From Escherichia coli (lineage in GTDB: Bacteria > Pseudomonadota > Gammaproteobacteria > Enterobacterales > Enterobacteriaceae): a stretch of DNA of 64,000 bases. Of the stretch, positions 30,838 through 34,342 are shown piece after piece. The notes beneath the pieces are model-generated. The model saw only the letters and a program-made list of their open reading frames with translations, did no database searches and was not told the origin of the DNA. Position 1 is the first letter of the stretch; each line of letters starts with the position of its first letter. The DNA lies in NCBI RefSeq assembly GCF_041886205.1, contig NZ_CP169029.1; one strand, given 5' to 3'. The position numbers and the translations under genes are program-made.

Positions 30838-31018
30838 AAAAGTTTGATGCTCAAAGAATTAAACTTCGTAATGAATTACGTGTTCACTCTTGAGACTTGG
30901 TATTCATTTTTCGTCTTGCGACGTTAAGAATCCGTATCTTCGAGTGCCCACACAGATTGTCTGATAAATTGTTAAAGAGCAGTTGCGACGCGCTTTAGCG
31001 CACTGTCGCGAGGTGGCG

Positions 31019-31047
31019 TATATTACGCTTTCCTCTTTCAGAGTCAA
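31019..31047 (-). promoter_or_regulatory. rrnE P2 promoter
   Basis: On the minus strand TTGACT - 16 bp - TAATAT followed by GC-rich discriminator (ACGCCACC), about 185 bp upstream of the mature 16S 5' end. Confidence 0.6.
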
Positions 31048-31129
31048 CCCTGAATTTCAGGATTTTTCTCTTCAACCGAACCGGCTGTTTGTGTGAAGTG
31101 ATTCACATCCGCCGTGTCGATGGAGGCGC

Positions 31130-31200
31130 ATTATAGGGAGTTCTCCGCAGGCCGCAATAGAAAAATTGCAGAAAAATGACTGACTGCTGCATTCCCCAGC
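31130..31200 (-). promoter_or_regulatory. rrnE P1 promoter with AT-rich UP-element region
   Basis: On the minus strand TTGCGG - 16 bp - TATAAT then GCGCCTCC discriminator; AT-rich tract (CATTTTTCTGCAATTTTTCTAT) immediately upstream. Confidence 0.6.
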
Positions 31201-31328
31201 AAAAGCCCGCTTTATACCTTTTTACGCACAGAGTTATCCACAATCATCAATGTAATTTCTGTATTTTGCCCACGGTAACCACAGTCAAAATTGTGATCAC
31301 CATTGAAAGAGAAAAATTCGCGAGCGTT

Positions 31329-31344
31329 GCGCAAACGTTTTCGT
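31329..31344. promoter_or_regulatory. PurR operator upstream of purHD
   Basis: GCGCAAACGTTTTCGT matches the PurR box consensus (ACGCAAACGTTTTCNT-like palindrome). Confidence 0.6.
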
Positions 31345-31451
31345 TACAATGCGGGCGAAAAATAAGGATGCCCCGTTAGGGGCGTTAGCTGAGTTTTTCG
31401 CGAAAAATTCAGCTAACGCTCTCTGTAATAGTCAAATCCAGGGGATTTACC

Positions 31452-33041
31452 ATGCAACAACGTCGTCCAGTCCGCCGCGCTCTGCTCAGTGTTTCTGACA
31501 AAGCCGGTATCGTCGAATTCGCCCAGGCACTTTCCGCACGCGGTGTGGAGCTGCTGTCTACAGGGGGCACTGCCCGTCTGTTAGCAGAAAAAGGTCTGCC
31601 GGTAACCGAAGTTTCCGATTACACCGGTTTCCCGGAGATGATGGATGGACGCGTGAAGACCCTGCATCCGAAAGTACATGGTGGCATTCTGGGCCGTCGC
31701 GGCCAGGACGATGCCATTATGGAAGAACATCAGATCCAGCCTATCGATATGGTGGTTGTTAACCTGTATCCGTTCGCCCAGACCGTGGCCCGTGAAGGTT
31801 GCTCGCTGGAAGATGCGGTTGAGAACATCGATATCGGCGGCCCAACGATGGTGCGCTCCGCCGCCAAGAACCATAAAGATGTCGCAATCGTGGTGAAGAG
31901 CAGCGACTATGACGCCATTATTAAAGAGATGGATGACAACGAAGGATCGCTGACGCTTGCAACCCGTTTCGACCTCGCCATCAAAGCCTTCGAACACACT
32001 GCCGCCTACGACAGCATGATTGCCAACTACTTCGGCAGCATGGTTCCGGCTTACCACGGTGAAAGCAAAGAAGCCGCCGGTCGCTTCCCACGCACGCTGA
32101 ACCTGAACTTCATTAAGAAGCTGGATATGCGTTACGGCGAGAACAGCCACCAGCAGGCTGCCTTCTATATAGAAGAGAATGTGAAAGAAGCCTCCGTTGC
32201 TACCGCAACCCAGGTTCAGGGTAAAGCCCTCTCTTATAACAACATCGCCGATACCGATGCGGCGCTGGAGTGCGTGAAAGAGTTCGCCGAGCCGGCATGT
32301 GTGATTGTGAAGCACGCCAACCCTTGCGGCGTGGCTATCGGCAATTCCATTCTTGATGCTTACGATCGCGCGTACAAAACCGACCCAACCTCCGCATTCG
32401 GCGGCATCATTGCCTTTAACCGCGAGCTGGATGCGGAAACCGCACAGGCCATCATTTCTCGTCAGTTTGTCGAAGTGATTATTGCGCCGTCCGCCAGCGA
32501 AGAAGCCCTGAAAATCACCGCCGCCAAACAGAACGTACGCGTTCTGACCTGCGGTCAGTGGGGCGAGCGTGTTCCGGGCCTCGATTTCAAACGCGTGAAC
32601 GGCGGTCTGCTGGTTCAGGATCGTGACCTGGGGATGGTCGGTGCGGAAGAACTGCGCGTGGTGACCAAACGTCAGCCGAGCGAACAGGAACTGCGTGATG
32701 CGCTGTTCTGCTGGAAGGTGGCGAAGTTTGTGAAATCCAACGCTATCGTCTATGCCAAAAACAATATGACTATCGGCATTGGCGCGGGCCAGATGAGCCG
32801 CGTGTACTCCGCAAAAATCGCCGGTATTAAAGCGGCCGATGAAGGCCTGGAAGTGAAAGGTTCCTCGATGGCTTCTGACGCGTTCTTCCCGTTCCGCGAC
32901 GGTATTGATGCCGCCGCCGCTGCGGGCGTGACCTGCGTAATCCAGCCTGGCGGTTCTATCCGTGATGACGAAGTGATTGCCGCCGCCGACGAGCACGGTA
33001 TTGCGATGCTCTTCACCGACATGCGCCACTTCCGCCATTAA
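31452..33041 (+). CDS. purH: Bifunctional AICAR transformylase / IMP cyclohydrolase
   Basis: 529-aa [30 protein letters not shown]... Confidence 0.97.
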
Positions 33042-33052
33042 TGGAGCAATAG

Positions 33053-34342
33053 ATGAAAGTATTAGTGATTGGTAACGGCGGGCGCGAGCACGCGCTGGCC
33101 TGGAAAGCGGCCCAGTCGCCGCTGGTTGAGACTGTTTTTGTTGCTCCGGGTAATGCAGGCACTGCACTGGAACCCGCGCTGCAAAACGTTGCTATTGGCG
33201 TGACCGATATCCCGGCGCTGTTGGATTTCGCACAAAACGAAAAGATTGATCTGACCATCGTCGGCCCGGAAGCGCCGCTGGTGAAAGGCGTGGTCGATAC
33301 CTTCCGCGCCGCCGGGCTGAAAATCTTCGGCCCAACCGCAGGTGCGGCCCAACTGGAAGGCTCAAAAGCGTTTACCAAAGATTTCCTGGCCCGCCATAAG
33401 ATCCCTACGGCGGAATACCAGAACTTCACCGAGGTAGAACCTGCGCTGGCGTATCTGCGTGAGAAAGGCGCGCCAATCGTCATTAAAGCGGACGGTCTGG
33501 CTGCCGGGAAAGGCGTTATCGTGGCGATGACGCTGGAAGAAGCGGAAGCGGCTGTTCACGATATGCTGGCGGGCAACGCTTTTGGCGACGCGGGTCATCG
33601 CATCGTTATCGAAGAGTTCCTCGATGGCGAAGAAGCGAGCTTTATCGTGATGGTGGACGGCGAGCATGTGCTGCCGATGGCTACCAGCCAGGATCACAAA
33701 CGCGTAGGCGATAAAGATACCGGACCAAACACCGGCGGGATGGGCGCTTACTCCCCCGCGCCGGTAGTAACCGATGACGTTCATCAGCGCACCATGGAAC
33801 GTATTATCTGGCCAACCGTGAAAGGCATGGCGGCGGAAGGCAACACCTACACCGGTTTTCTCTACGCGGGCCTGATGATCGACAAACAGGGCAATCCGAA
33901 GGTTATTGAATTTAACTGCCGCTTTGGCGATCCGGAAACCCAGCCGATTATGCTGCGCATGAAGTCCGATCTGGTTGAGCTCTGCCTGGCGGCCTGTGAA
34001 AGCAAACTGGACGAGAAAACGTCCGAGTGGGATGAACGCGCTTCTCTCGGCGTGGTGATGGCTGCGGGTGGATATCCGGGTGATTACCGCACCGGTGACG
34101 TGATCCACGGCCTGCCGCTGGAAGAAGTGGCAGGCGGCAAAGTGTTCCACGCGGGCACAAAACTGGCGGATGACGAGCAGGTAGTGACCAACGGCGGGCG
34201 CGTACTGTGCGTCACCGCGCTGGGTCATACCGTGGCAGAAGCGCAGAAACGCGCCTATGCCTTAATGACCGATATCCACTGGGACGACTGCTTCTGCCGG
34301 AAAGATATCGGCTGGCGCGCTATCGAACGCGAGCAGAACTAA
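33053..34342 (+). CDS. purD: Phosphoribosylamine-glycine ligase
   Basis: 429-aa ORF MKVLVIGNGGREHALAWKAAQSPLVETVFVAPGNAG... Confidence 0.97.
   Translation: MKVLVIGNGGREHALAWKAAQSPLVETVFVAPGNAGTALEPALQNVAIGVTDIPALLDFAQNEKIDLTIVGPEAPLVKGVVDTFRAAGLKIFGPTAGAAQLEGSKAFTKDFLARHKIPTAEYQNFTEVEPALAYLREKGAPIVIKADGLAAGKGVIVAMTLEEAEAAVHDMLAGNAFGDAGHRIVIEEFLDGEEASFIVMVDGEHVLPMATSQDHKRVGDKDTGPNTGGMGAYSPAPVVTDDVHQRTMERIIWPTVKGMAAEGNTYTGFLYAGLMIDKQGNPKVIEFNCRFGDPETQPIMLRMKSDLVELCLAACESKLDEKTSEWDERASLGVVMAAGGYPGDYRTGDVIHGLPLEEVAGGKVFHAGTKLADDEQVVTNGGRVLCVTALGHTVAEAQKRAYALMTDIHWDDCFCRKDIGWRAIEREQN

Follow-up and report, generated by a model that had tools for sequence, protein, structure and literature searches.

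The 5′ leader of the purHD operon in Escherichia coli contains a 38-bp near-perfect palindrome, located at positions 31382–31419 of a 64,000-nucleotide (nt) stretch of DNA (RefSeq contig NZ_CP169029.1; hereafter, the window). This palindrome is genuine, is not a product of chance, and has a biological meaning as a conserved stem-loop of the leader, which folds in the purH-sense RNA and is maintained in four families of Enterobacterales. With regard to function, a constitutive role of the stem-loop in messenger RNA (mRNA) decay and/or translation initiation seems likelier than that of a ligand- or signal-responsive switch, and this reading is given a probability of roughly one half. What is new is a leader stem-loop that is unannotated and uncurated, a familiar kind of element and not a new kind of system. 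The purHD operon is a textbook case of PurR regulation, yet its leader structure is under purifying and compensatory selection in four families and has been assigned no annotation, Rfam family, or function in the literature searched.

The palindrome (GCGTTAGCTGAGTTTTTCGCGAAAAATTCAGCTAACGC) was recovered by a repeat search as a 19+19-nt inverted repeat whose arms are 95% complementary. Both the sequence and this search bear out the original prediction, made from the letters alone, of a 38-bp near-perfect palindrome at this position with symmetry at 18 of 19 positions per arm; its landmarks, the PurR box at 31329–31344 and the purH ATG at 31452, were likewise correct. The sole mismatch, G31393 opposite T31408, becomes a G·U wobble in RNA of the plus (purH-sense) strand and an A/C mismatch on the other strand. 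Among the hairpin-type inverted repeats of the window, the palindrome ranks first. By simple arithmetic under the assumption of uniform base composition, a palindrome with 19-nt arms and at most one mismatch has a chance of ~58/4^19 per position, or ~1e-5 per 64 kb. Furthermore, the leader RNA from 31352 to 31470 reached a minimum free energy (MFE) of −44.4 kcal/mol, compared to −26.9 ± 3.5 kcal/mol in 200 dinucleotide shuffles (z = −5.05), and none of these shuffles (0/200) folded as well. In E. coli K-12 MG1655, the promoter and leader are identical to those of the window, with the counterpart of the palindrome on the minus strand at 4,207,565–4,207,602 and the purH ATG at 4,207,532.

The palindrome begins 32 nt downstream of the PurR box and its adjoining −10 hexamer, TACAAT, and ends 33 nt upstream of the purH ATG, which places it, by the predicted start of transcription, inside the purHD leader. 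From the usual 6- to 7-nt spacing after the −10, purH transcription would start at ~31357 (K-12 ~4,207,627), giving a predicted 5′ untranslated leader of ~95 nt. The start was placed there because the box and −10 module precedes purH in most related loci. In a scan of purH with one genome per species (80 loci), the 49 Enterobacterales loci were inspected for this module; the PurR box was present upstream of purH in 47, and TA(C/A/G)AAT directly followed it in nearly all of these, Proteus (locus L045) having TTATTAT instead. A ChIP-chip study of PurR (PMC3159470) gave ACGAAAACGTTTGCGC as the purH-purD PurR site, and the upstream PUR box was the only site that it reported at purH. No sigma-70 promoter was predicted after the hairpin in the E. 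coli leader, and the sole match, in Serratia oryzae, is at chance level. The position of the −10, the folding, and the conservation on the sense strand all support the earlier suggestion that the palindrome is a hairpin lying in the purH 5′ leader. The features of the region are the following.

31329–31344, plus strand: PurR operator (PUR box), GCGCAAACGTTTTCGT, identified from the sequence; its reverse complement is the published purH-purD site.
31345–31350, plus strand: −10 hexamer TACAAT, directly adjoining the PurR box.
31370–31383, plus strand: hairpin P1, GCCCC-GUUA-GGGGC; G31382 and C31383 of its 3′ arm also belong to the palindrome.
31382–31419, plus strand: hairpin P2 (the palindrome), ~17 bp, with the loop CGCG at 31399–31402 and the G31393·U31408 wobble.
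31379–31422, plus strand: possible extended P2 helix, in which the G-run 31379–31382 pairs with CUCU 31419–31422; it excludes P1.
31419–31424, plus strand: CUCUCU, a pyrimidine run that directly follows P2 on its 3′ side; GCUCU hardly varies.
31441–31445, plus strand: Shine–Dalgarno (SD) sequence of purH, GGGGA; P2 ends 21 nt upstream.
31452–33041, plus strand: purH coding sequence (CDS), from the list of open reading frames (ORFs) and the RefSeq annotation of the identical E. coli region.
33053–34342: purD CDS, following purH.

Comparison with other Enterobacterales leaders, which had been proposed as a check, revealed both conservation and compensatory changes. The same two-hairpin module was found in 37 purH leaders, from 20 Enterobacteriaceae, 7 Erwiniaceae, 8 Yersiniaceae, and 2 Pectobacteriaceae. 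The base of P2 is kept as CGUUAnCUGA…UCAnnUAACG, followed by CUCU, and the apex ranges from the 4-nt loop of E. coli to ~60 inserted nt in Serratia and Rahnella, where the inserts still fold back. The spacing of the conserved arms extends from 34 nt in the E. coli hairpin to 98 nt in Rahnella. The near-perfect palindrome is peculiar to Escherichia and a few neighbours, the helix being mismatched in Citrobacter, Kluyvera, Enterobacter, and most other lineages. Downstream of P2, the CUCU run (alignment columns 137–140) is invariant or nearly so in 35 sequences, and the SD context of purH, (C)CA(G/A)GGGAU, is conserved across families.

Covariation was measured on a MAFFT alignment of 35 leaders over 15 basal pairs of P2. 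The basal P2 helix is 90.7% paired across the 35 sequences, with compensatory, double-sided changes in 8 of the 15 pairs; at the column pair 31–131, for example, GC occurs 19 times, CG 9 times, UA 4 times, and UG twice. All four tested pairs of P1, which RNAalifold also predicted for the 20 Enterobacteriaceae, change on both sides (CG/UG/UA/GU/AU), and 87% of their cells are paired. The observed pairing measures were reached by none of 500 shuffles, and pairing fell to 29–49% when the partners were slid by 1–3 columns. Two leaders that had been kept out of this alignment were picked up by a covariance model derived from it (E = 1e-11 and 3e-4), and the model gave no second match in the 64-kb window and none in the other 44 loci searched.

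Within E. coli, the element is nearly invariant. The 451 nt around the palindrome match 5,419 of 5,426 complete E. coli genomes at 95–100% identity. A 61-nt query comprising P1 and P2 hit exactly one locus in each of these 5,419 genomes; the two BLAST "places" returned for every genome correspond to the plus and minus strands of one palindromic site. Identity to the query is 99% or higher in 5,381 of them. Five diverse strains carry 3–19 differences in the 451-nt region 31150–31600; nearly all of these fall within 31178–31311, two are in the purH CDS, and none is in the 140 nt of promoter and leader at 31312–31451. The cluster of differences beside the invariant 140 nt reflects either an abrupt onset of constraint or a patch of recombination. 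Strain 28RC1 has 19 differences, 18 of them in 31250–31311. One rare E. coli variant combines a change of the loop base, C31399U, with a change of G31366.

These findings bear directly on the idea, also raised in the original prediction, of a REP-like insertion. A mobile palindromic insertion (REP/BIME/ERIC-like or other) would have no gene-specific role, and the purH element resembles REP/BIME and ERIC sequences in being an imperfect palindrome in an enterobacterial intergenic region. Unlike them, it is single-copy, gene-specific, and orthologously conserved: it occupies one locus per E. coli genome, the covariance model revealed no other copy in the window, and the element sits at the orthologous site in 37 species from four families. 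The single locus and near-invariance mean that the element is not a REP-like repeat and that it is under purifying selection. The mobile-insertion reading is thus effectively refuted already. The possibility of a feature common to the whole pur regulon was also rejected, as the K-12 purM, purC, and guaB leaders contain nothing similar; the K-12 purC leader carries what looks like an ordinary REP.

The comparative data also distinguish between an RNA element and a DNA element. The sense RNA was more stable than the antisense RNA in 30 of 35 loci, with 58 G·U pairs in the sense compared to 27 in the antisense strand (Wilcoxon p = 7e-5, phylogeny ignored). This folding bias holds in nearly all Enterobacteriaceae and in 7 of 7 Erwiniaceae. 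At the palindrome itself, the covariance model scored 75.3 bits on the plus strand and 27.1 on the minus strand. These results point to the palindrome as the DNA image of a purH-sense RNA stem-loop and not as an operator, a cruciform, or a REP-like insertion.

A DNA-level element, either another operator, bound by a dimeric regulator, or a cruciform that absorbs supercoils beside the divergent rrnE promoters, is accordingly very unlikely. In its favour, the dyad symmetry is near-perfect in E. coli, and the half-sites GCTGAG/TTCAGC resemble those of the LacI/GalR family (Cra-like). The adjacency of purH to an rrn operon also appears widespread in Enterobacterales; it is an apparent adjacency, as most contigs end just upstream and a match to the Rfam family Ysr197 lies upstream in three loci. 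However, the palindrome is imperfect in Citrobacter, Enterobacter, and most other lineages, and Gammaproteobacteria lacking an adjacent rrn operon also carry a purH leader hairpin. The fixed half-site spacing expected of a LacI/GalR-type dimeric operator (PurR, Cra) was not found among relatives, in which the half-sites are separated by ~4 to ~60 extra nt. The spacing of the arms varies by tens of nucleotides, which speaks strongly against a dimeric operator and is harmless to a hairpin. Furthermore, a G·U pair is G/T or A/C depending on the DNA strand, and G·U is tolerated on the sense strand only, which was the strand favoured in 30 of 35 loci. The earlier proposal of a second operator or dyad-symmetric protein-binding site is not supported by these comparisons.

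Compared to the PurR operator, a 16-bp dyad bound by a member of the LacI/GalR family, the palindrome shares the presence of dyad DNA at a pur promoter, and its arms GCGTTAGC/GCTAACGC are loosely PUR-like. It differs in several respects. First, it is 38 bp and not 16 bp long. Second, its half-sites face outward at a distance of ~22 bp and lack a central CpG hinge step. Third, the spacing varies in relatives, and the true PUR box lies 38 nt upstream.

As an RNA element, P2 may act in cis and post-transcriptionally to set the yield of PurH and PurD per transcript. In the four families, the conserved arrangement runs from the PurR promoter through a short 5′ single strand, the small GC hairpin P1, the abutting P2, and CUCU to the SD ~20–50 nt further on. 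Two routes seem most likely. First, P2 could be a stable barrier that separates the 5′ end from the coding region and slows 5′-end-dependent decay. Second, P2 could shape access to the ribosome-binding site (RBS), either insulating or positioning it; here, the pairing of the G-run with the C-run of P1 or with CUCU might decide which anti-SD-like pyrimidine segment stays free.

Stabilising hairpins of the ompA type in the 5′ untranslated region (5′-UTR) sit within a few nucleotides of the 5′ end and are obstacles to scanning by RNase E. Like such stabilisers, the purH stem-loop lies between the 5′ end and the CDS, and the mRNA is fairly long-lived (~10 min). Unlike in the ompA hairpin, ~13 unpaired nt precede P1, given the predicted start. 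The half-life of purH mRNA was ~10 min in the wild type and was halved in a csrA mutant, as it was for many genes (Potts et al. 2017); the former value lends weak support to a role in stability. A role as a CsrA target was considered and rejected: two GGA motifs are present in the leader (AAGGAUG at 31364–31370, and the SD), and purH is scored "No" in CLIP-seq and in three other lists (Potts et al. 2017, Supplementary Data 2).

Several observations weigh against the constitutive reading. The literature searched yielded no experimental result on the function of the leader hairpin and no paper on a purHD hairpin; early papers on pur genes may have commented on dyad symmetries in leaders, possibly including this one. 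In the portions covered, the 3′-end and transcription start site supplements (PMC7815308, PMC4782308) list neither purH nor the leader coordinates, and the start at ~31357 is a predicted one. In the RNase III map of PMC5371410, as far as its accessible part extends, the purH-rrsE intergenic region has one site, 4,207,874, in the rrsE leader. With P1 beginning ~13 nt from the predicted 5′ end, the arrangement departs from the classical 5′-terminal protective hairpin of the ompA type. Over 34 modelled leaders, SD accessibility showed no consistent difference between the two pairing states of the G-run (0.33 compared to 0.32), and the idea of RBS access is therefore left without comparative support. 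Finally, the five basal pairs of P2, above all GUUA/UAAC, are constant in these families while the next pair, 31–131, covaries freely. This invariance goes beyond plain structural stability and hints at sequence-specific recognition.

The last point is the starting point for a different reading, in which P2 is an RNA operator: a sequence-specific protein, perhaps in autoregulation, would read the helix base GUUA/UAAC together with a conserved internal mismatch. Alignment columns U28, U29, A30, U132, A133, A134, and the pair A35–U127 are invariant, and G27–C135 and U33–A129 are present in 34 of 35 sequences, beside the freely covarying pair 31–131. An internal mismatch at columns 32–130 is kept in 19 of 35 sequences. 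The GUUA…UAAC motif is visible even in the otherwise different purH hairpin of Photorhabdus, and an RNA operator is the sole reading that naturally explains the unchanging five basal pairs. However, no candidate protein has emerged; purH is negative in the CsrA CLIP-seq data; E. coli itself has no internal mismatch; and the invariance might simply mean that paired positions change slowly and that the sample is limited. An RNA operator is rather improbable.

Another possibility is that the helix serves as an entry site for RNase III, which would cut away the 5′ portion of the leader and determine the rate of decay or translation. Leaders processed by RNase III include those of rnc, pnp, adhE, and proU. 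The purH leader is similar in having an uninterrupted helix of ~20 bp or longer: P2 with its G·U-containing extension, or P1 stacked coaxially on P2, gives ~21 contiguous bp, which is roughly the minimal substrate. The helix comprises 17 + 4 bp in E. coli, thereby reaching the ~20 bp needed, and is longer in other families; a long double-stranded helix is conserved, and the apex sequence is free. In contrast to the processed leaders, no cleavage at the purH palindrome is reported in the part of PMC5371410 that was covered, where the mapped site is the one in the rrsE leader and not 4,207,565–4,207,602. The accessible text of a second global map (Altuvia et al.) makes no mention of purH. In addition, the helix contains mismatches or bulges in many relatives. 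RNase III entry is possible but on the whole unlikely.

The arrangement of P1 and P2 suggests a further alternative. The G-run 31379–31382 can either close P1 by pairing with CCCC or extend P2 by pairing with CUCU 31419–31422 (G-C, G·U, G-C, G·U). In E. coli, the two local states were computed at −28.4 and −29.7 kcal/mol, 1.3 kcal/mol apart; over 34 species, constrained folding gave a mean difference of 1.6 ± 2.5 kcal/mol. The extension belongs to the MFE structure in many species, and its pairs are compatible in 27–35 of the 35 sequences and hardly vary. Because the G-run and CUCU are both nearly invariant, covariation cannot decide on the extension. Leaders with a covarying P1 (GAGG, GGUG) have a disrupted extension. 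The pyrimidine runs of P1 and of CUCU are both complementary to the G-rich SD, and a switch model is therefore suggested.

In such a translational switch, the choice of partner by the G-run, either the C-run of P1 or CUCU, would free a pyrimidine run able to mask the SD, and a trans factor, processing of the 5′ end, or ribosomes on an upstream ORF (uORF) at 31368–31379 could drive the change. Several findings are compatible with this model: the two states are near-isoenergetic in E. coli and across species, GGGG and CUCU are both nearly invariant, short uORFs occur at the equivalent position in 13 of 20 Enterobacteriaceae, and extending P2 doubles the SD accessibility modelled for E. coli and its closest relatives (0.36 compared to 0.18). 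On the other hand, SD accessibility does not differ consistently, one state (B) exceeding the other (A) in 18 of 34 leaders; the pairs of the extension show no covariation and are lost where P1 covaries; and several Enterobacteriaceae and other families lack the uORF. A translational switch is therefore doubtful.

The uORF of the window is a tiny frame on the plus strand, AUG-CCC-CGU-UAG (MPR*), which overlaps P1. An AUG at the equal leader position in the 13 Enterobacteriaceae opens ORFs of 3–7 codons, most of which stop at the UAG in the conserved CGUUAGC; the stop of the E. coli and E. albertii frames is the UAG that spans the loop and 3′ arm of P1. Translation of the uORF is doubtful because the SD-like AAGGA abuts the AUG without spacing. 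RNAfold and RNAalifold also predicted long-range pairings (the SD with codons 8–10, and the 5′ GGAUG with codons 5–7); these involve invariant sequence and show no covariation.

A control at the level of transcription was also considered, in which P2, with its GGGG:CUCU base, would be an intrinsic terminator and P1 the antiterminator of an attenuator. The topology of alternative pairing is like that of 1:2/2:3 attenuators, and the leader of Serratia grimesii has a U-rich tail (T-tail score 3.8). The E. coli tail after the helix, however, is CUGUAAUAG, with a T-tail score of 0.9–1.1, and most species score 1–2.6; a terminator scan found none on the plus strand; and the 3′-end (Term-seq) data, in the portion covered, have no purH entry. 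An attenuator is highly improbable. A simple intrinsic terminator was rejected because of the weak U-tail, which scores at most 2.8 in 34 of 35 relatives. On the minus strand, from 31383 to 31360, P1 (GCCCCUAACGGGGC) followed by AUCCUUAUUUUU scores as terminator-like, with a U-tract that is offset from the stem and partly conserved. In this orientation, P1 could stop antisense transcription entering from purH.

In many other bacteria, purH and folate genes are controlled by the ZTP riboswitch (pfl motif, RF01750). The purH element is like this riboswitch in being a cis-acting structured RNA in a purH 5′ leader that could add a post-transcriptional layer. It differs in being a simple long hairpin with a variable apex, with no pseudoknot or conserved loops, and hence no ligand pocket is apparent. 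Searches of Rfam returned no match in 31190–31452 at E ≤ 10, the ZTP riboswitch included; in 14 related loci, none was found at E ≤ 1 except chance matches of microRNA models to hairpins. The element has no RefSeq feature and is absent from Rfam 15, in agreement with the original suggestion that it is unannotated.

Outside the 37 leaders, the arrangement is different. The purH leaders of Morganellaceae, Budviciaceae, Hafniaceae, Tatumella, Mangrovibacter, and Rosenbergiella differ from the two-hairpin module, and several of them have a long hairpin. In Photorhabdus caribbeanensis, a ~120-nt element with TATAC…GGGTATA ends is inserted in the apex of the purH hairpin (L039:~440–560); other Photorhabdus species do not have this insert. 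The insert resembles an ERIC/IRU repeat. An ERIC-like insert inside the hairpin apex implies that ERIC and the purH hairpin are distinct things.

Twelve purH leaders of Vibrionaceae, Aeromonas, Shewanella, and Ferrimonas (L050–L078) carry a different long hairpin, also with a variable apex (examples: L050:1425–1472, L058:1417–1471, and L078:1407–1471). Its base is GGGUAUUUnCCAAA…UUUGGCAAAUAUCUU, also written GG(G)UAUUUnCCAAA…UUUGGCAAAUAUCUU; the 5′ foot is G-rich and the 3′ foot CU-rich, and the hairpin ends 23–41 nt ahead of the ATG in 10 of the 12 loci. This hairpin gave no Rfam match and was not found by the Enterobacterales covariance model, and its strand asymmetry is mixed. No such hairpin was seen in the purH leaders of Vibrio salinus (L057) and Pasteurellaceae. 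The Vibrio-type and Enterobacterales hairpins have in common a long helix, a variable apex, and G-rich and CU-rich feet, while their base sequences differ. This common architecture suggests an old, recurrent solution at purH, with homology being putative.

The most far-reaching interpretation combines these elements: the leader stem-loop would be a regulatory switch or an RNA operator for a trans factor, providing PurR-independent post-transcriptional control of purH, and would represent an ancient device also present in Vibrionales, Aeromonadales, and Alteromonadales. We regard this interpretation as improbable, if conceivable. If such a switch or operator reading were true, the element would match in function the ZTP riboswitch, which guards purH in other phyla, and would respond, for example, to 5-aminoimidazole-4-carboxamide ribonucleotide (AICAR/ZMP), folate, or translation status, and the long hairpins of the three other orders would be diverged versions of the same device. 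The importance of a regulated switch or protein operator at the ZMP-consuming step would be substantially greater.

The constitutive reading has consequences of its own. If the stem-loop affects decay or translation, it would place a post-transcriptional layer on the step that consumes AICAR/ZMP, an alarmone-like metabolite. It would then also be of practical concern in engineering the production of purines, histidine, riboflavin, or AICAR, in which native purH leaders are often kept or swapped. If it is a structural stabiliser only, it is an ordinary but unusually clean example of a conserved 5′-UTR stem-loop.

Some minor observations concern the neighbourhood of the leader. In several Enterobacteriaceae (L012, L015, L016, and L017), GUAAUGUUC replaces the E. 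coli GUAAUAGUC ~27 nt upstream of the purH ATG. The change creates an in-frame upstream AUG and a 9-codon N-terminal extension, such as MFKSWGFIT-MQQRRP, or MSKSWGFNT- in L015; in Escherichia sp. ESNIH1 (L018), the equivalent upstream AUG is out of frame. A segment of the K-12 guaB promoter, TTACGCTCTGTATAATG (L088:42100–42130), resembles the purH leader segment TAACGCTCTCTGTAATAG (31414–31432 of the window), a likeness that is probably a coincidence.

Upstream of purH, the minus strand carries rrsE and its leader, and the Rfam match to small-subunit (SSU) ribosomal RNA reaches 30837. A sub-threshold match to the Rfam family "Yersinia sRNA 197" (Ysr197; 117 bits compared to a gathering score of 167) was found on the minus strand at 30959–31190. 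It covers the region between the rrnE promoters and 16S, and the same match recurs ahead of purH in loci of Serratia, Pantoea, and Yersinia; the family probably describes an rrn operon leader rather than an independent small RNA (sRNA). Between the rrnE promoters and the purH promoter, at 31234–31242 on the plus strand and ~95 nt upstream of the PurR box, there is a perfect consensus DnaA box, TTATCCACA. The same 9-mer precedes purH, in the same orientation, in 47 of the 49 Enterobacterales loci, which suggests a conserved DnaA site in the purH promoter region.

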